A stretch of 64,000 nt of DNA from an uncultured Gammaproteobacteria bacterium. GTDB taxonomy: Bacteria; Patescibacteriota; Patescibacteriia; Magasanikbacterales; GWA2-37-8. The translations under genes were made by a program, and so were the position numbers. The stretch is from assembly GCA_964511375.1 (NCBI GenBank), contig CAZEEW010000006.1, positions 279 through 64,278 on the forward strand. The letters are read 5' to 3'. Below the pieces are notes generated by a model. The model saw only the letters and a list, made by a program, of their open reading frames with translations, did not search any database and was not told the origin of the DNA. Of the stretch, positions 24,481 through 60,407 are shown piece after piece. Every line of letters begins with the position of its first letter. The first letter of the stretch is position 1.

Positions 24481-24509
24481 TTGACGATTACCTACTTTTC
24501 CGGTATATT
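24481..24509 (+). promoter_or_regulatory. sigma70-like promoter TTGACG-17-TATATT driving the GC-rich cassette 1
   Basis: Near-consensus hexamers with 17-nt spacer, about 125 nt upstream of the ATG. Confidence 0.45.
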
Positions 24510-24534
24510 ATTCGACTGTTCTTTTACAAGCACA

Positions 24535-24586
24535 CCGAGGCGAGCTCTAAGTGGACATCTCTATGCCCCTTTAGAGCTCACCTCGG
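24535..24586 (+). promoter_or_regulatory. 5'UTR hairpin: 16-bp inverted repeat CCGAGGCGAGCTCTAA/TTAGAGCTCACCTCGG with 20-nt loop
   Basis: Read directly; sits between promoter and RBS AAAGGAG. Confidence 0.4.
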
Positions 24587-24634
24587 AACAGATTCAAGGT
24601 TGAGCGCAGAATACCGCAGCGGAAAGGAGAATAC

Positions 24635-25066
24635 ATGCACCGCTGCGACGCCGTTCTGATCTCGTGTTTCGACTGGCGCATCCGGCGTCGGGTAGACGCC
24701 TGGATGCAATCGCAGGGTTACTTCACTTACGATCCCCTGCCGTATCCGGGGATCGTTGGTGTGATCAACTCTCCAACCTGCCCTGAAGGTCGGGAATTCG
24801 TGTTCCAGGGCGTGGCGAAGTCCCTCCGGCTCCATGCGCCCCACGACATCGTCGTCGTCACCCACGACGACTGTGGGGCGTTCGAGAGGTTCTTCTCCTC
24901 GCCTGAGGAAGAACGCTCATTCCACCACGAGCAGCTGCGCCTCGCGGCTGCTCTCATTCGGGCGCGCTGGCCCGAAGGGCCGGCGATTCGCCTGCTGTAC
25001 CTGACCGGTACGGCGTCCGTCGTGGACGCCAACACCGGTCATATCACGGTCGAGGAGCTGTCCTAG
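24635..25066 (+). CDS. beta-carbonic-anhydrase-like small protein (143 aa), GC-rich foreign-looking gene
   Basis: CxDxR (SCFDWR) and HxxCG (HDDCGA) beta-CA zinc-ligand motifs; AAAGGAG RBS 5 nt upstream; GC3-biased codons unlike host. Confidence 0.55.
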   Translation: MHRCDAVLISCFDWRIRRRVDAWMQSQGYFTYDPLPYPGIVGVINSPTCPEGREFVFQGVAKSLRLHAPHDIVVVTHDDCGAFERFFSSPEEERSFHHEQLRLAAALIRARWPEGPAIRLLYLTGTASVVDANTGHITVEELS

Positions 25067-25206
25067 CCCTCGACCTCTCCTGCCTTGGCCCGCTCCGGGC
25101 CAGCTCCATTTGGGCCCGGCGTCGTTCTTCGGCTCCTGGTCTCAAGAGAATGTATTTTAAATGTATCTTCTTGAGAGCCGAAGAAAATGTGCTTTAAAGA
25201 TACAGT

Positions 25207-32825: not shown

Positions 32826-34589
32826 TTATGGACTAAATACGTCTACCGAGTTACTGCCAATTACTGCCCCACTCGAATCCTTTGCTATAAATGTCAGGCG
32901 GTATGGCCCTCGATCTTTCCAAGTCCAACCACTAACATCCACCCAGGCTTCTTTGTGTGGATAATCCTCATTACTGTTATACATCTGGTTTAATCGATCG
33001 CCATCGACTTGCCAATACATTTCATAATTGGAAATGCTGACACTCGGAATATCTGCTTTAAACGGTTGCGGACCTGATAAAGTTACATTCTTAGTTGGCC
33101 ACCAAATGTTGATTGACCCACTGGTTGGGGGCGGTGTCGTAGTTCCGCCTCCCCCACCTGAAGAAGCATTTTGAACGTTAATACTTTTAACGTTGTCCAT
33201 CCAAATATAGTTTACGGACCAATTATTGTTAAAGACGCCAGCCACAATCCGGTAGTCTCCGGGACTAGTGGGTGTCCAGGTGGGATTAAAAGTTTTACTT
33301 CCACCAACTGTAAACGACTGATTTTCGTAGAACTGCTGAAAAACCTTACCACCACTATTGTTATACACTTCGACGTCAACGATCGCCCCATTAACTGCCC
33401 CGGTATGATTGTTTTTAACTACGACATTCAATCCCACACCTTGGTCAACCGTCGCTGTAGTTGGTGCATTGCTAGTTATGTTAAAATTTGTCGCACTGGG
33501 ATTCCCTGTACCAGGGTCGCCCCCACTTCCACCCCCTCCTTGACCACTGCCACCAAACCATGTCCGCATTGTACCTTCGGCCGGTTTATTTTGTGGAGTA
33601 AAATCTGTATTACCATTACCCCCAGCATTAGGATCACTGATCCAGTCCCACAGATGCACTCCCTGCATGTATGATTGCCCGTCCCAATACGAAAACAGGG
33701 CTTCGTAAAGAGCAACTTGGTTATCTGGATCATAACCTCCGCCACCCCAGTAATTAAATGGCTCCCACTGCGCCCAGTCCATGCTGCGGTAACCAATTTC
33801 AGTAAAGAGTACTGGTTTGTTCCAGCGATTGTGAAGATTCTTTATGTCATTATTATTAATCTTGTCCCATTCGTTTTTGTACGCCTCAACGGACTTGTTT
33901 CCCGTTGGTAAGGGAAAATACGCGGAGATGCCAATGTAATCTAGACTTGGCCAAAATGTGATACGGTTTTTTTCATCAGTCCAACCCGGACCACCCCAGT
34001 TGGCACTATAAGTTAATTTGCCACCATATATTTGCCTGACCGAACTAATGAGGTTATTCCAGTTTTCGGTATTAGTCGAGTTTGCGTCATTCGCCGCCAT
34101 GTTAATTAGCTCAGCACCAATAGTAAATTCTTCCACTCCGTTATTTTTAGCAATTGCGGCGTAATGACGCACCTTGTCCCCGTACGACTTAAACCAAGCG
34201 TTACGATCCCCAGGGTTAATATTTGCACGCCATTGGCCATCATTGCTTTCCAAATGAAGCTTTAAATTTACTTGCATGCCTTGGTTGTGTATATATTGAA
34301 TCCCTGACGCCAATGAGGCATCAGTTGGTGTATTCCAATGATTGTAAACATTAGTAGCCCAAACATTGTCCTGAGCTAGAGGGATCACCATGGTGATGTA
34401 ATTGGCATTGGTGGCTTTAATTTTATCCACAACCTGCCTAAACCCATCACTATCATAGTCAGTGTTCCAACGTGGAACAACACTAACACCTTTTTGCCAG
34501 CTACCTATTGCAGCATTGGCTTGTTGGTGGACTGGTATGACCAAAACAGTTAGTGCCGCAGCTAGAATGAAGGATATAGCTTTTTTCAT
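32826..34589 (-). CDS. secreted modular glycoside hydrolase (GH5/GH26-like TIM-barrel) + Gly-rich linkers + two accessory beta-sandwich domains
   Basis: Signal peptide; catalytic-region pattern ...FTEIGYRS...; Gly/Ser/Thr/Pro linkers; C-terminal domain homologous to one in the adjacent GH6 protein. Confidence 0.6.
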   Translation of the reverse strand: MKKAISFILAAALTVLVIPVHQQANAAIGSWQKGVSVVPRWNTDYDSDGFRQVVDKIKATNANYITMVIPLAQDNVWATNVYNHWNTPTDASLASGIQYIHNQGMQVNLKLHLESNDGQWRANINPGDRNAWFKSYGDKVRHYAAIAKNNGVEEFTIGAELINMAANDANSTNTENWNNLISSVRQIYGGKLTYSANWGGPGWTDEKNRITFWPSLDYIGISAYFPLPTGNKSVEAYKNEWDKINNNDIKNLHNRWNKPVLFTEIGYRSMDWAQWEPFNYWGGGGYDPDNQVALYEALFSYWDGQSYMQGVHLWDWISDPNAGGNGNTDFTPQNKPAEGTMRTWFGGSGQGGGGSGGDPGTGNPSATNFNITSNAPTTATVDQGVGLNVVVKNNHTGAVNGAIVDVEVYNNSGGKVFQQFYENQSFTVGGSKTFNPTWTPTSPGDYRIVAGVFNNNWSVNYIWMDNVKSINVQNASSGGGGGTTTPPPTSGSINIWWPTKNVTLSGPQPFKADIPSVSISNYEMYWQVDGDRLNQMYNSNEDYPHKEAWVDVSGWTWKDRGPYRLTFIAKDSSGAVIGSNSVDVFSP

Positions 34590-34790: not shown

Positions 34791-36479
34791 TTACCATGTT
34801 GCACGCTGGGCGAGCCCAAGAGCATAATCCGCCCACCATTCCCCAGCGTTCGGACCACCATTACAGTTACCATCGGATTCCCCAGGGGTCTTAATCCAGA
34901 GATACCCGTCGATAGCGCTGTTACCAGTACTTAAGCTTGGTTTATTACCCAAAGCGCGACCCGCTGGATTACACCACTCACCATTACCACCCAAACCATT
35001 TCGGGCAGTGTCAATCACGAAGTGTTTGTTGTTGATCAACCGAGACACTTCCTGACCGTAGGACGTATTTTGGCTGGTGGTATAAAAATTTGAAACATTC
35101 AAGGCAAAACCTTCAGCCCGGGCAATACCAGCTTGTGATAAGCGGTTAGCCATTTCACCAGAATTAATCCAACCTGGGTGACCAGCATCAATATATACCT
35201 TTACGCCTGGCTTTGCTTCTAGAGTTGAAACAGCGAAGTTTAAAAGCTCATAACGACGATCCTTATCTCCCTGAGATAAACAATCGGTAAGAGCAGTGGC
35301 ATCTGGTTCAAGAACAACGATCGCACTACGGCTACCAATGCCATTAGCCACACTGGTAATCCAAGATTTATACGCATCGCTACTGGTTGAACCACCAGCA
35401 GAGTAACCGCCACAGTCACGCTGTGGAATATTGTAAGCTACTAAGACTGGGGTTGCATTAGCGTTCGCAGCGGCATCCACGTAGTTTTTTACATCTTGGT
35501 AAATATTACTGTTCCAACCACCAAACCATCGGGCACTAGGTTGGTTACCGATCTTTAACATAAGCGCTGCATCAGCTGGACGACTGCTTTGCCAGTTTCT
35601 GGCTTGAGCTAAAGCTGGCGAATTGGGATTGACATACAGTCCTGATGTCGAAGGCTGAGCGGTGTCCGTAGTTTGCGTTTGAGCCGGCTGACTTGCAGTA
35701 GCAGCTGGCGCAGATTGTGTAGTGCTGCCAATGGTAACAGAAATACTTTTCTGTGATACTACTATCCCATTAACCTTAGCAACAAAATTAATCTTGTATG
35801 GGCCACTGCCTCGCCAATTCCACGAACCAACATTTACAGAAGTTTCTTTATGTGGTGAGTCATTGAAGTTATTTGGCATAACGTTTAATTGACCACCATC
35901 AACTTGCCAATACATTTCATAATTGGTAACACTTCTTCCATCTAGAACAGCTTTAAATGGTTGTGTACCACTTAAGACACTGTTATTGCTTGGCCACCAA
36001 ATACTAATATTGGCTGCAGTGGCTGTCGTAGTTTGGTTTGTACTTACTGTAGGAGCAGCTTGAACAGTTACTTCCTTCAAGTTTTCAAACCAGGCTAAAT
36101 TTGGATTCCAATATTCACCGAATATACCTAATTTAATTTTAAATTTACCAGTGTTAGTTGGTCGCCAGACAAAATCAAAGCTTTTTGTCTCGCCATTGGA
36201 AATATATTGGTTTTCTAAATATTTTTGCCAAACCCGTGTATTGTTTTCGTTATATATTTCCAGATCCACAACACCACGAGTTAAGGCGGAACCACTAACT
36301 GTCACACGAATAGTTGTGTCAGTATTAACAGTTAATGACGAAGGAATAGTTGTAGCGCTTGCAGTAAAGCCAGCGGCTTTTACCCGAGTAGCACTAGTGA
36401 ATAACGTTGTGAAAAGAACAGATATGACTAACAGTGCGTTAAAAACGCGTTTGGAGGACGATAGAGTTTTTGATTTCAT
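34791..36479 (-). CDS. secreted modular glycoside hydrolase family 6 (cellulase) with two N-terminal accessory domains
   Basis: GH6 signatures YNIPQRDCGG, VVLEPDA and WIKTPGESDG; signal peptide; N-terminal domains homologous to those of the 32826..34589 protein. Confidence 0.7.
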   Translation of the reverse strand: MKSKTLSSSKRVFNALLVISVLFTTLFTSATRVKAAGFTASATTIPSSLTVNTDTTIRVTVSGSALTRGVVDLEIYNENNTRVWQKYLENQYISNGETKSFDFVWRPTNTGKFKIKLGIFGEYWNPNLAWFENLKEVTVQAAPTVSTNQTTTATAANISIWWPSNNSVLSGTQPFKAVLDGRSVTNYEMYWQVDGGQLNVMPNNFNDSPHKETSVNVGSWNWRGSGPYKINFVAKVNGIVVSQKSISVTIGSTTQSAPAATASQPAQTQTTDTAQPSTSGLYVNPNSPALAQARNWQSSRPADAALMLKIGNQPSARWFGGWNSNIYQDVKNYVDAAANANATPVLVAYNIPQRDCGGYSAGGSTSSDAYKSWITSVANGIGSRSAIVVLEPDATALTDCLSQGDKDRRYELLNFAVSTLEAKPGVKVYIDAGHPGWINSGEMANRLSQAGIARAEGFALNVSNFYTTSQNTSYGQEVSRLINNKHFVIDTARNGLGGNGEWCNPAGRALGNKPSLSTGNSAIDGYLWIKTPGESDGNCNGGPNAGEWWADYALGLAQRATW

Positions 36480-36772
36480 GAAGAAATAATTTCTTTGCTC
36501 ATCTGAGAGGTCCGCGGATCACGCGCACGTCGAGCGAATTTCCCCGAGGGAGGGACGATTGTTTAATTTGCCCTGCCTTGTCTTTATCTCTCGTAAAGAC
36601 CAAATCGACGTTTTATAGTCCCCCGAGCTAATAGTTTTCTCCGGGTGGATATGCAAAACGTGTGCTCATTGTAGCAGAGAGGATTTTACCTACAAGCAAG
36701 GTGGAGAGGAAACAAGCTGTTTTTTACAGTTTATTTAGCCGAGAAATTATCCACAACCCTGGGATGAGATCA

Positions 36773-36826
36773 TTGACTTTAACCTTATAGTGTGGTACAA
36801 AGGACAGTTCAAAAACTGTTCTTTTT
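36773..36826 (+). promoter_or_regulatory. weak promoter-like TTGACT-17-TACAAA followed by small hairpin ACAGTT-CAAAA-AACTGT + T-run (possible attenuator/terminator) upstream of cassette 2
   Basis: Read directly; -10 is poor, function uncertain. Confidence 0.25.
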
Positions 36827-36841
36827 AAATTAATTTTGGCT

Positions 36842-36896
36842 AAGCTGACTTGCATAGTGGACATCTAACACAGGTGTTTAGTGTACCAGTCAGCTT
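36842..36896 (+). promoter_or_regulatory. 5'UTR inverted repeat AAGCTGACT ... AGTCAGCTT (9-bp stems, about 37-nt loop) upstream of cassette 2 ORF
   Basis: Read directly. Confidence 0.35.
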
Positions 36897-36954
36897 TGGA
36901 AAAACCACAGAACCAACCTGTGATGATTCAGGTTGAAGAAGCAGGGAGGCAACA

Positions 36955-37299
36955 ATGGGAGTGTTTCTCGTCCATCTGATCGTCCATCTCCTGGTCAGTG
37001 CTCTGATGGCGGGGGGAACCTACTTCTTCAGGGCACGACGGGCCCTGAAGAACGGGAAACACCTCAACGGGACGTTGACCGGAATGGTTAACGTCCTTAG
37101 CTGGACGCTGGCCCCAGTCTTCGCCAGCATAATTGTTCCGTATCCTGAAGAGCGGTCACTGAGACTGTGGTGGATCTCGGTGGCAGCCGCTTACCTGCTT
37201 AGTGCCGTTGCCATCTGGGTGAGTATTTTCCTCGCCCGGAGTTTGACTGGCTACGAACCACCGTATCCCACCGTGGAGGATGAATTGCCCACCGACTGA
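36955..37299 (+). CDS. small GC-rich membrane protein (114 aa, 3-4 TM), foreign-looking
   Basis: ORF track; RBS GGAGG 6-7 nt upstream; high GC3 codon usage unlike host; hydrophobic helices. Confidence 0.5.
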   Translation: MGVFLVHLIVHLLVSALMAGGTYFFRARRALKNGKHLNGTLTGMVNVLSWTLAPVFASIIVPYPEERSLRLWWISVAAAYLLSAVAIWVSIFLARSLTGYEPPYPTVEDELPTD

Positions 37300-37333
37300 G
37301 CAGACCGCACGTCTCATCCGAAGGGATCGCGCG

Positions 37334-37397
37334 CTCGTACATGGCTCGGTCTCTAGAGTAACTAAGTAATTAGTTCTTCTAGAGAGTTATGTACGAG
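37334..37397. repeat. 64-bp nested imperfect palindrome (CTCGTACAT...CTCTAGAG-T-AACTAA-GTAA-TTAGTT-CTTCTAGAGAG...ATGTACGAG) 3' of cassette 2 ORF
   Basis: Read directly; outer 9-bp arms perfect, inner arms perfect/near-perfect. Confidence 0.5.
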
Positions 37398-37404
37398 ATA
37401 AAAT

Positions 37405-37436
37405 AAAAATACCTACCTAAGTGGGGGGTATTTTTT
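37405..37436. terminator. intrinsic terminator AAAAATACC-13nt loop-GGTATTTTT + T-run, shared by cassette 2 (+) and tdk (-)
   Basis: 9-bp stem with flanking A/T runs on both strands between convergent genes. Confidence 0.45.
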
Positions 37437-37453
37437 AATAAATTTAAATACTG

Positions 37454-38047
37454 TTATTGTGTTGAAGTTGTCTCTACTGGTTGTGATCCGTAATGATCTT
37501 TTTTTACAAAACAATTCCTACACACTGCCATGTAAGTGTAAGTGCCATCATCTGGTAAAACTGAAGGGGCGTCAGTTAGAGGTGTGCCATTTGAAAGTAT
37601 TTGAGTGTGAGTGGCAGTGGGATTTTTGCACTGTTCACAGACGGCCCATTTGTATCTTACCTCCTTTGGTCCTAGTTCATATATCCTTTTTACCATCTCA
37701 AACATTAGGCCGCGCGAATCTAGATCTAACCCAGAAATAATTACCTTAACTCCCCTTTTTAACAGGTTATCTACTGCCGAGACCTCTTCGGGCGGAAACA
37801 TGTGCACCTCGTCAATTCCGATCACTTTGTAACTATCTAAAGGTATTTCCTTAAGACTTAAGATTTTTGTGGCTTCCAAACCACTACCATTCCGTGATAA
37901 CACCTTATCTTCACGCACATGTCGAGCACATTGGTATAACGCATGAGGGATATTCGTGTACTTCAAAGGTGCAAAGTGGCTAATTAGATCATATGACTTA
38001 CCACTTTTCATTGGACCTAAGATAAGAACAAGATCAATATTTTGCAT
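37454..38047 (-). CDS. tdk: thymidine kinase
   Basis: P-loop LGPMKSGKS and C-terminal Zn-ribbon CxxC...CxxC. Confidence 0.85.
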   Translation of the reverse strand: MQNIDLVLILGPMKSGKSYDLISHFAPLKYTNIPHALYQCARHVREDKVLSRNGSGLEATKILSLKEIPLDSYKVIGIDEVHMFPPEEVSAVDNLLKRGVKVIISGLDLDSRGLMFEMVKRIYELGPKEVRYKWAVCEQCKNPTATHTQILSNGTPLTDAPSVLPDDGTYTYMAVCRNCFVKKDHYGSQPVETTSTQ

Positions 38048-45994: not shown

Positions 45995-46063
45995 AGTAAT
46001 TTTATGCTAACATTGCAAAATATCTATGGCAACCTGGCAGAGCATTATTAGATATACCGTAAC

Positions 46064-46092
46064 TGACAATACGGTCATTTGTGTGATATAAA
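46064..46092 (+). promoter_or_regulatory. sigma70-like promoter TGACAA-17-TATAAA for cassette 3
   Basis: Read directly; followed by hairpin GTCCGC-AAAGC-GCGGAC (46098-46114) and RBS GGAGGA 5 nt before ATG. Confidence 0.4.
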
Positions 46093-46139
46093 ATCAGGTC
46101 CGCAAAGCGCGGACTTCATCACCGTCACGGAGGAAACCG

Positions 46140-46658
46140 ATGTCCAAGCGCAACTGGGTGGCTATCAACGAGCTCGAGAACTACCATTTCCGCGTCCTGG
46201 TCGCGACGACCGACGACGCGGAGATCCTGGCCGGGCTCGAGCGGGGCTTCCCCGAGCTCTTCCTCGCGGGCGAGGAGGCACCCCTCTACCCGGTGCCCCT
46301 GTCGGTTGTCCAGAGCCGAGCCCGGGAATTCTCGATGCGCGAGTACCCCGATGAGAAGTGCTGGCAAGAGGACCAACACTTCATCCTGTGCTGGGGCACC
46401 TGCGACGACCTCGACATCCCGACCGCCTTCACCTGGGATGCCGACAACGAGGAGATCCCCCCGGAAATCCTCCAACAGTTCATGGGCCAGAGAGCCCAGG
46501 CCGGCATGACGGTCGTGATCGACGACCGTCGCTACCTGGTCTGGTTCATCGCGTTCAAGGTGGGCGAGGAGATCAAGCCCGGGGACACGTTCGAATCCCC
46601 ACCCAAGCTCGACAGGCTCGACCTCGTCGATGCCGACTTCGTCGACCTCGAGAGCTGA
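46140..46658 (+). CDS. acidic 172-aa hypothetical protein, GC-rich foreign-looking gene
   Basis: ORF track; strong RBS; about 65% GC with GC3 bias; no recognised motif. Confidence 0.5.
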   Translation: MSKRNWVAINELENYHFRVLVATTDDAEILAGLERGFPELFLAGEEAPLYPVPLSVVQSRAREFSMREYPDEKCWQEDQHFILCWGTCDDLDIPTAFTWDADNEEIPPEILQQFMGQRAQAGMTVVIDDRRYLVWFIAFKVGEEIKPGDTFESPPKLDRLDLVDADFVDLES

Positions 46659-46686
46659 TGGCGCTCGCGGCCCAAGGAGGGCCAGA

Positions 46687-46754
46687 CCGGGGCAGGAGAT
46701 ACGTCTCCTGCCCCGGTCAGCTACCTAAACATCTTTTGAGAAGATGTTTTTTTA
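46687..46754. terminator. tandem hairpins: perfect 13-bp stem CCGGGGCAGGAGA-TACG-TCTCCTGCCCCGG then terminator AACATCTT-TTGAG-AAGATGTT + T7; second hairpin also serves the convergent Y-family polymerase gene
   Basis: Read directly. Confidence 0.6.
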
Positions 46755-59902: not shown

Positions 59903-60110
59903 AATAACGGGTGTATAAAAGTTAATATTTATTAGAATATCACGAAGTTAAAATCCGGTCTAGGTTATATAATAAAGAGCGGGCTTTACGAAAAAACAGG
60001 CTTTTTTAAACCTGCTTTTCCACAACTGCTCGCCCTTTTGGGAAAAATACGAACGGATTTGGCCGAAATTTAAGATTGGCGGGTAGTAGAAAAATTCCCC
60101 ACATACCACA

Positions 60111-60407
60111 TGGCTCCGGGGGCGGGATTCGAACCCGCGACCAATTGATTACACTTACCTACTTGTTTCCAAATAGTGTGGACTATATCATCACCCCGAC
60201 GATGTCGGGGGCAAGGCGCTTCGACCAATTACCTGGTCTACTCCTTTCGGATAGTCTCTGAACCTTCCTGCTTTCGCAGGCTTGGCTGCTGATTACCATT
60301 GCCTTTCGACTTTAGGCTTCCAGCAATTCACCTTGTTTTCTGCCTTAATTACTTAAGGTAGCTGCGTTAAACCACAGTCAACTGCGCTACCGCTGCGCTA
60401 CCCCGGA
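60111..60407 (-). tRNA. tRNA-Asn(GUU) gene interrupted by a group I intron in the anticodon loop (exons 60374..60407 and 60111..60151)
   Basis: Perfect 7-bp acceptor stem (UCCGGGG/CCCCGGA) pairs across 297 nt; D-arm GCGC-AGCGGUA-GCGC; T-arm GCGGG-UUCGAAU-CCCGC; spliced loop CUGUUAA gives anticodon GUU with U1-A72 and G73 as in E. coli tRNA-Asn; CCA encoded. Confidence 0.65.
60152..60373 (-). ncRNA. group I self-splicing intron (222 nt) inserted between nucleotides 35 and 36 of tRNA-Asn
   Basis: Core elements AAUGGUAAUCAGCAGCCAAGCC and GGUUCAGAGACUA match conserved P3/P4/P6 and P7/J8-7 sequences of group I introns (Tetrahymena GUUCACAGACUA; Azoarcus AGAGACUA, GCCAAGC); 5' exon ends in U with GCAG internal guide pairing; intron ends in G. 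Confidence 0.65.

Follow-up and report, generated by a model that had tools for sequence, protein, structure and literature searches.

A GC-rich single-gene cassette bracketed by conserved stem-loops in the tdk-GH6 interval of a Patescibacteria genome

The DNA considered here is a stretch of 64,000 nucleotides (contig CAZEEW010000006.1, assembly GCA_964511375.1), referred to below as the window. It belongs to an AT-rich, Magasanikbacteria-like chromosome of the Patescibacteria, or candidate phyla radiation (CPR). Between its tdk gene, encoding thymidine kinase, and a gene for a glycoside hydrolase of family GH6 lies a small GC-rich open reading frame (ORF) of 114 codons, carried by the plus strand and therefore opposite in direction to both neighbours. 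Together with a promoter-like element, a structured region on its 5′ side and a 64-nt palindrome on its 3′ side, this ORF makes up cassette 2 (C2), the subject of this study; C1 and C3 are cassettes 1 and 3 of the same window. Loci or contigs of relatives used for comparison carry L-numbers and proteins carry P-numbers. An initial annotation had listed the ORF, the promoter-like element, a hairpin with a T-run, a repeat with a 9-bp stem, the 64-nt palindrome and a bidirectional terminator, all of which are present in the sequence (Table 1). C2 is an accessory gene cassette, or islet, that belongs to a small cassette family; what marks this family, and evolves slowly, is the two structured untranslated regions (UTRs) and not the ORF. 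The family has a real chance of being a new cassette system.

The limits of the cassette are revealed by two relatives, L003 and L013, in which the tdk-GH6 synteny is kept. Homology of the window to both ends at position 36755 and picks up again just past 37397; the inserted unit is therefore 36756-37397. L003 lacks the cassette: the conserved GH6 upstream sequence leads straight to the bidirectional terminator, with only a remnant of some 12–15 nt in the slot, and about 15 nt there resemble the 3′ arm of the hairpin (11 of 15 positions against L013). In L013 the same slot is occupied by a 553-bp GC-rich cassette with a homologous scaffold and a different ORF, encoding an unrelated 77-aa protein. 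The slot is known in three states (window type, L013 type and remnant), and insertion, absence and replacement are directly seen at the same site in sister genomes, as expected of the inserted cassette of foreign composition, with a promoter of its own, that had been proposed. The sequence is not an assembly artefact or a chimera because two independent Logan assemblies (SRR6488411 and SRR5011273) match the window at 100% across the cassette. The contig bearing C1 also exists independently.

The 3′ stem-loop forms the exact right edge of the insertion. At the left end no hairpin or repeat is conserved between the window and L013. Target-site duplications had been envisaged at the edges; at the true cassette edges none is convincing and only imperfect 6-7-mers occur, while the L013 cassette is flanked by the short imperfect repeats GGTGAG/GGAGAG. 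The terminator that follows the stem-loop is called by a terminator scan as a hairpin at 37412-37425 with a T-run. Host terminators throughout the window follow the consensus AAA(A)CAC...GTGTTT. The terminators of C2 and L071, like those of C1 and L075, are alike, and the idea that the terminator moves with the cassette was considered and rejected, this consensus being common to host terminators. The 470-nt leader initially ascribed to the ORF is composite: about 36756-36954 indeed belongs to the cassette, while the other 276 nt (36480-36755) are the promoter and 5′UTR of GH6 on the other strand.

Table 1. Coordinates of C2, of its neighbours and of related elements. Positions are those of the window unless a locus is named.
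Feature	Position	Strand	Description
GH6 gene	34791-36479	-	Pfam-confirmed
GH6 upstream region	36480-36755	-	Host sequence outside the cassette; promoter TTGTAG-16-TACAAT and ~190-nt 5′ leader
Cassette proper (C2)	36756-37397	+	~640 bp: promoter, structured 5′UTR, GC-rich ORF, GC-rich 3′ spacer, 3′ stem-loop
Promoter-like element	36773-36801	+	-35 TTGACT (36773-36778), 17-nt spacer, extended -10 TGgTACAAA (36793-36801); consensus match
Hairpin and T-run (TTTTT)	36799-36824	+	From repeat search; copy-specific, no L013 counterpart; overlaps -10/start region
Stem-loop HP-I	36842-36896	+	18-pair consensus, with compensatory changes and all pairs intact against L013; 9-bp-stem inverted repeat
Single-stranded motif GCTTTGGAAAARCC	36893-36906	+	Directly 3′ of HP-I; identical in window, L013 and L071
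Stem-loop HP-II	36914-36935	+	Just 5′ of the Shine-Dalgarno sequence; 7 pairs, 3 compensatory between window and L013
C2 ORF	36955-37299	+	114 aa; predicted three-helix membrane protein
3′ spacer	37300-37333	+	GC-rich, travels with the ORF; 3′ part GGGAYCGCGCG conserved with L071
3′UTR stem-loop	37334-37397	+	64 nt, 27 bp: 14-bp basal stem, 4-nt 5′ bulge (GGTC), 7-bp middle stem, 1x1 mismatch, 6-bp apical stem, 4-nt loop
Bidirectional intrinsic terminator	37405-37436	both	Common to cassette and tdk; host type; also in cassette-less L003
tdk (thymidine kinase)	37454-38047	-	Pfam-confirmed
Cassette 1 (C1)	24481-25185	+	Own promoter, 5′ hairpin, 143-aa Pro_CA_2 ORF (24635-25066), related 3′ stem-loop (25125-25185)
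Cassette 3 (C3)	46063-46718	+	Promoter, 5′ hairpin, 172-aa ORF (46140-46658, GC3 0.90), GC-rich 3′ hairpin unrelated to the others
Small GC-rich ORF	L004 3663-4247	-	Lipoprotein-type signal peptide
Small GC-rich ORF	L010 72-524	-	Lipoprotein-type signal peptide
Small GC-rich ORF	L011 1360-1938	-	Lipoprotein-type signal peptide
Small GC-rich ORF	L072 33-350	+	Truncated at contig end
GGCCC-N4-5-GGGCC hairpin (C1)	25087-25101
GGCCC-N4-5-GGGCC hairpin (C3)	46669-46683
GGCCC-N4-5-GGGCC hairpin	L071 444-457
GGCCC-N4-5-GGGCC hairpin	L075 4444-4458

The ORF is preceded, seven bases before its start, by the Shine-Dalgarno (SD) sequence GGGAGG (36944-36949). Its overall GC content is 56.8%, lower than the 62% initially quoted, but the bias at third codon positions (GC3) is confirmed, with a GC3 of 0.68 against ~0.33 in the host (0.57, 0.45 and 0.68 for the three codon positions). 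The predicted protein has no match in Pfam, PHROG, PADLOC or NCBIfam. AlphaFold2 returns three long hydrophobic helices in a weak model (predicted local confidence, pLDDT, of 66, from a 2-sequence alignment). Exhaustive search of 1.8 billion representatives provides a sole convincing homologue, P0003 (~45-46% identity, E 4e-21), whose gene is itself GC-rich; the remaining matches of this search (E 1e-4 to 1e-6), all to long proteins of repetitive sequence, are considered spurious. A word-indexed search of 5.8 billion clusters returns only the query. Comparison of the C2 ORF with that of L071, which carries P0003, gives a synonymous divergence (dS) of 1.25 and a nonsynonymous divergence (dN) of 0.45. 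Since dN/dS is 0.36, the ORF encodes a real protein under purifying selection.

On the 5′ side, the supposition that the leader encodes a structured RNA holds for the 5′UTR of the cassette itself, whose structure is conserved in homologous loci and covaries: the alignment fold of the window with L013 contains 28 pairs, six of them compensatory and none broken. The pattern ATTGACTTTA-N-TGnTAnnAn of the promoter-like element is positionally conserved in L013, and the cassette on L011 is preceded by a similar element. The two stem-loops, HP-I and HP-II, are separated by the motif GCTTTGGAAAARCC, and L071 has a hairpin equivalent to HP-II. A covariance model of this 5′ module, R2, matches only C2, L013 and L071 and is therefore specific to one group of cassettes, called type A. 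Neither UTR matches Rfam when the whole window is searched at the gathering threshold, the sole passing match being a group I intron elsewhere; lowering the threshold to E <= 10 for 36380-37480 yields only chance-level alignments (best E = 1.9, far under threshold). An 11-mer, AGTGGACATCT, occurs in the apical part of the 5′ stem-loop of both C1 (24550-24560) and C2 (36856-36866); their counterparts in L075 and L013, from other genomes, lack it. This sharing hints at gene conversion between cassettes within the genome or at a shared, genome-specific trans-acting partner.

The 3′ palindrome of C2 is bounded by perfect outer arms of 9 bp (CTCGTACAT/ATGTACGAG), contains two TCTAGA sites and has AACTAA/TTAGTT as its core. 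Its predicted fold has an energy of -33.5 kcal/mol (z = -5.2), and none of 200 shuffled sequences is as stable. The motif TCTCNAGA...TTCTNGAGAG is found twice in the window, where 0.00 occurrences are expected, and both copies (C1 and C2) stand 3′ of GC-rich cassette ORFs. The stem-loop copies have a common architecture: an 11-14-bp basal stem, variable in sequence from one cassette type to another except for CTC/GAG at its top; a 5′-side bulge of 4-6 nt (GGTC, GATC or CWGGTC); a middle stem of 7 bp that contains the conserved TCNAGAR/TTCTNGA core; a 1x1 mismatch; and a variable apical stem and loop. The resulting core, CTC-GRTC-TCNAGAR...TTCTNGA-GAG, is common to cassette types which differ elsewhere. 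The four type-A copies have no broken pair in the main stems, and compensatory double changes affect 6 of the 26 pairs. The pairing is also strand-specific. Over the basal and middle stems of six copies there are 111 Watson-Crick pairs and 8 G-T pairs on the sense strand; A-C and other mismatches do not occur. In every copy folding is better for the sense strand than for the antisense strand, where G-U pairs are lacking. This sense-strand-specific G-U pairing favours an RNA role for the palindrome.

The palindrome is not an ordinary terminator, because it is followed by an A-rich tract (ATAAAATAAAAA) without a U-tract and because a separate canonical terminator comes after it and is present even where the cassette is missing. 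Neither is it an attC site, although it had been likened to one in form. A regular-expression scan of both strands of all six hairpins finds no R″ (RYYYAAC)/R′ (GTTRRRY) pair, the only match to an attC core being a single stray GTTAAAC in L071; in addition the centre of the hairpin is conserved and not its ends, the cassettes have promoters of their own and are solitary instead of forming an array, and there is no integrase in the 64 kb. On this last point the initial annotation was right: domain scans of the window ORFs reveal no integrase, transposase or reverse transcriptase anywhere in the window. Scanning 2.9 million viral contigs with a specific and a general version of the 3′ motif yields no match and one chance match, in a coding region, respectively.

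Relatives of C2 occur at other loci and define a family. The L013 cassette has the same layout: a ATTGACTTTA promoter, a long 5′ stem-loop then GCTTTGGAAAARCC, a second stem-loop, a GGGAGG SD, a GC-rich ORF and a 64-nt 3′ palindrome with the same core. The gene for P0003, on L071/L072, comes with the same 5′ motif and a 93%-identical 3′ palindrome and adjoins polA instead of tdk. A metagenome scan with the palindrome core identifies two contigs only, L071 again and L073, both from sample Ga0209541; in L073 an L013-type palindrome adjoins an ABC ATPase gene. Each cassette type is therefore found at two different loci, tdk-GH6 and polA for the C2 type and tdk-GH6 and ABC ATPase for the L013 type. 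Metagenome contigs often break within cassette units (L071 measures 636 bp, both ends of L072 are GC-rich, and the start of L073 falls within a unit), which suggests heterogeneity within populations.

A covariance model of the 3′ stem-loop, R1, built from the four type-A copies only, also matches C1 (E 8e-6), the C1 orthologue on L075 (E 4e-7) and, more weakly, L011 (E 0.004), and each match lies just 3′ of a GC-rich ORF, which in L011 encodes a lipoprotein. The architecture that C2 was thought to share with both other cassettes of the window is thus borne out for C1 by R1; C3, with its different 3′ hairpin, is only loosely similar and is not detected by the model. Annotation of the other cargo proteins gives Pro_CA_2 for C1 as the sole match. 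The word-indexed search returns for C3 only itself and for C1 one cassette homologue (P0010). No cargo protein matches PHROG, and tblastn against phage (50,697 records) and plasmids finds nothing. Genes and Pfam domains listed for another 10 kb, past the window start, include no further cassette-like gene, in a segment that the R1 scan does not cover. More small GC-rich ORFs are present in related Patescibacteria metagenome-assembled genomes (MAGs), with GC3 of 0.73-0.88 and no Pfam match; those of L004, L010, L011 and L072 each have their own AT-rich promoter-like sequence and stand beside a host-type terminator. A GC-rich hairpin, GGCCC-N4-5-GGGCC, lies just past the stop codon of the otherwise unrelated ORFs of C1, C3, P0003 and the C1 orthologue.

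All cassette ORFs share a marked composition, with GC3 of 0.68-0.90 against 0.30-0.36 (~0.33) in host genes and the order C3 > G3 >> T3, A3 at third positions. This composition is retained over long divergence. C1 and its L075 orthologue have 80% protein identity, flanking host genes being 78-86% identical with saturated four-fold sites; with a dS of 0.89 both still have GC3 of 0.73-0.78, and 9 of 26 differences at four-fold sites are exchanges between G and C. Since synonymous sites are nearly saturated and the ORFs are still GC-rich, these are not fresh, un-ameliorated transfers: GC-richness is a stable property of the cassettes and not the fading mark of a recent import. No homologue was found in GC-rich genomes, by exhaustive search for C2 only and, for C1 and C3, by the word-indexed search, which can miss distant relatives. 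The UTR structures change far more slowly than the cargo. C2 and L071 have 93% identity in the 3′ stem-loop and ~90% in the 5′ motif, and their stems differ by wobble or compensatory changes. This slow change around a diverged ORF indicates long-term structural constraint and not recent copying.

We give about an even chance to the explanation that 36756-37397 is mobile and constitutes an accessory transcription unit of one gene, with UTR stem-loops that function at the level of the mRNA. What we infer from the comparisons is that the predicted promoter is active, that the structures have a role in RNA and that the unit has a means of movement. The unit would be transcribed from its own sigma-70-like promoter through to the shared terminator, antisense to its neighbours. 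Its 5′UTR of about 150 nt, with two conserved stem-loops and a strong SD, might protect the message and control translation initiation, and the 27-30-bp duplex at the 3′ end could act as a barrier to 3′ exonucleases or as a processing site for RNase III. Together the two UTR structures would turn any cargo ORF into a stable, insulated message. Whole cassettes, scaffold and cargo, would relocate among intergenic positions just upstream of terminators and be lost by deletion. The strand which folds better follows the sense of the ORF both where the ORF opposes its neighbours (the window) and where it is co-directional with them (L072), and transcription therefore fits better than exposure at the replication fork.

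Several points weigh against this explanation. The C2 promoter and the extent of the transcript are consensus-based guesses, and the hairpin with its T-run (36799-36824) overlies the predicted start site. The GC-richness of the cassette ORFs is not accounted for, and with only 6-7 copies from 3-4 lineages the statistics are thin. Folded single-stranded DNA (ssDNA) also tolerates G-T wobbles, so that strand asymmetry alone does not discriminate RNA from sense ssDNA. Moreover, the stem-loop sits exactly at the right cassette boundary, and the L003 remnant, with its likeness to a 3′ arm, fits a DNA crossover inside the hairpin. Such a crossover is part of the main rival explanation, in which the palindrome is a DNA recombination site: folded as ssDNA, it would be used by an unlinked tyrosine or HUH recombinase, as are attC sites, the ends of IS200/IS605 elements and the attP of CTX-phi, and this enzyme would move the cassettes while folding of the RNA would be incidental. 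The conserved core in otherwise different cassette types, the imperfect repeats around the L013 cassette, the use of one slot by two cassettes and the presence of each type at a second locus would all be in keeping with it. We nevertheless consider it rather unlikely. No candidate enzyme is encoded in the 64 kb, the attC cores are lacking and at the left end neither a hairpin nor a repeat is conserved. A plain microhomology deletion would explain the L003 remnant equally well, and the favoured strand tracks the sense of the ORF in the window and in L072. Nor can the 3′ arm of the hairpin be target DNA (an attB): this was ruled out, as the arm travels with the cassette to other loci (L013 versus L073).

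Two further explanations assign the stem-loop a more ordinary part. The palindrome could belong to a termination or insulation signal which keeps the antisense transcript out of tdk, C2 then being an ordinary strain-specific islet. It does lie between a stop codon and a terminator, in a unit that is head-on to tdk; long hairpins can pause RNA polymerase, and the weak Rfam alignments obtained here rest only on a terminator-like stem. We find this improbable, given the bases (ATAAAATAAAAA) that stand where a U-tract would be needed and the complete canonical terminator that already follows and is present without the cassette in L003. The conserved bulge and core across cargo types also exceed what a terminator needs, and the other host terminators of the window are simple stems of 7-13 bp. 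That C2 was recently imported from a GC-rich bacterium and has not ameliorated, its flanking hairpins being coincidental or derived from the donor, seems very improbable. Its GC3 range and the excess of C3 over G3 are indeed typical of genes from GC-rich genomes, the short GC-rich hairpins after the stop codons of C1, C3 and L071 resemble terminators of GC-rich bacteria, and the sister genome L003 lacks the cassette. However, the searches, exhaustive for C2 and word-indexed for C1 and C3, gave no homologue in a GC-rich genome. Copies that have diverged to dS 0.9-1.25 have kept their GC-rich codons, many of the synonymous changes being exchanges between G and C. C1 is about as diverged from its orthologue as are the flanking host genes, and conservation extends beyond the cargo to the AT-rich promoter and UTR modules.

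A broader proposal, which extends the mobile transcription unit to a whole system, is put forward only tentatively and is in our view doubtful. The cassettes would form an undescribed system of the CPR/Patescibacteria, made of portable expression scaffolds, each with a promoter, a structured 5′UTR and the conserved 3′ stem-loop, that carry fast-evolving ORFan cargo, hop between terminator-proximal slots and replace one another at a given slot, a functional analogue of integrons without an integron integrase. GC-rich coding would not be left over from recent transfer but actively maintained; selection acting on the mRNA is one candidate cause, and GC-biased gene conversion that accompanies very frequent recombination another. 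A limited literature search, on GC-rich cassettes in CPR/Patescibacteria and on the source Sequence Read Archive runs, found no description of the cassettes.

The surroundings of C2 are those of an ordinary CPR chromosome. The remaining window encodes housekeeping functions (ATP synthase, tRNA synthetases, SufS/NifU, UvrD, MreB) and also glycoside hydrolases. Its tdk has its closest relatives in MAGs of Patescibacteria/Magasanikbacteria, some of which carry wrong labels. Among the closest non-CPR relatives are thymidine kinases of two high-GC Actinobacteria, Dactylosporangium and Micromonospora (L026-L057, L069), which are ~47-51% identical to that of the window; this could reflect old gene exchange. 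On the other side of the cassette, the ~270 nt upstream of the GH6 cellulase gene (36480-36755) contain a candidate cis-regulatory leader. This region is largely unchanged among the window, cassette-less L003 and L013, although the coding DNA of the three genomes is only 73-79% identical. The ~190-nt leader folds well (-43 kcal/mol for the consensus), its variation is too low for a covariation test, and it has no Rfam match. The region terminates in a perfect DnaA-box-like sequence, TTATCCACA (36747-36755), of which the window contains three against 0.64 expected. The adjacent GH113 (32826-34589) and GH6 genes have repeated non-catalytic domains in common, and assemblies break here: two SRR5011273 contigs overlap by just ~30 nt (36050-36079). 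Further away, a tRNA gene (60110-60406, minus strand) is split in its anticodon loop by a group I intron (Rfam RF00028, 82.8 bits), with exons CCGGGGTAGCGCAGCGGTAGCGCAGTTGACT... and ...AATCAATTGGTCGCGGGTTCGAATCCCGCCCCCGGAGCCA. ARAGORN detects no tRNA in the unspliced window; splicing in silico produces a 75-nt tRNA which, according to the splice point chosen, is read as Thr(UGU) or Asn(GUU).

The genomes of Patescibacteria are tiny and streamlined, and little is understood of how they gain and swap accessory genes. Here small membrane, lipoprotein and ORFan genes occupy fixed intergenic slots and are bracketed by more slowly evolving elements, probably structured RNAs. That a CPR genome should contain a conserved, structured scaffold with hypervariable GC-rich cargo inside it was unexpected, and the comparative evidence for it is solid. 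Should the scaffold serve as a platform for mobility or expression, CPR bacteria would have a new route of gene flux and, in it, a natural "insulated expression cassette". Should biased gene conversion or selection be what maintains the GC content, the cassettes would offer an unusually clean bacterial test case. The covariance models R1 and R2 provide a handle for enumerating the family in metagenomes.

Several known systems resemble the cassettes in part. Phage morons are independent promoter-ORF-terminator units inserted between two genes. C2 is similar in being a single ORF with its own promoter (by consensus only) and a terminator, of odd composition and variably present between unrelated genes; it differs in that it resides among the housekeeping genes of a chromosome and not in a prophage, and in having no PHROG or phage matches. 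We know of no moron that features conserved, covarying 5′ and 3′ stem-loop modules such as those of the cassettes. The IS200/IS605-derived palindrome-associated transposable elements (PATEs) and pdif/Xer modules are, like C2, small units delimited by a hairpin or palindromic site, and are moved by enzymes encoded elsewhere. In the cassettes, no conserved left-end hairpin, TnpA/TnpB, dif-like 11-6-11 architecture or inverted pair of sites was found.

Integron cassettes are also small one-ORF units, mostly ORFans, with different cargos at one site. The hairpin shares with attC an imperfect, strand-specific palindrome of 27-30 bp, with an asymmetric 5′ bulge of 4-6 nt and a 1x1 mismatch, better conserved than the cargo. 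Unlike attC it has no R″/R′ cores, and it is conserved centrally with variable ends, the reverse of attC. Each cassette also has its own -35/-10 consensus, and the copies are solitary and dispersed, with no array and no IntI in the 64 kb. A different resemblance is to repetitive extragenic palindromic (REP) sequences and bacterial interspersed mosaic elements (BIMEs), to stabiliser hairpins of 3′UTRs and to the RNase III retroregulation site sib of phage lambda, all imperfect palindromes between a stop codon and a terminator. In the cassettes, where transcription is predicted, the 27-30-bp duplex would likewise have the length needed to stop 3′ exonucleases or to serve as a substrate of RNase III. 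Unlike REPs and BIMEs, the hairpins are not scattered genome-wide, no transposase was found, and both copies in the 64 kb follow GC-rich cassette ORFs. The cassette hairpin is also longer, with an internal core that is conserved, and comes together with a conserved 5′UTR module.

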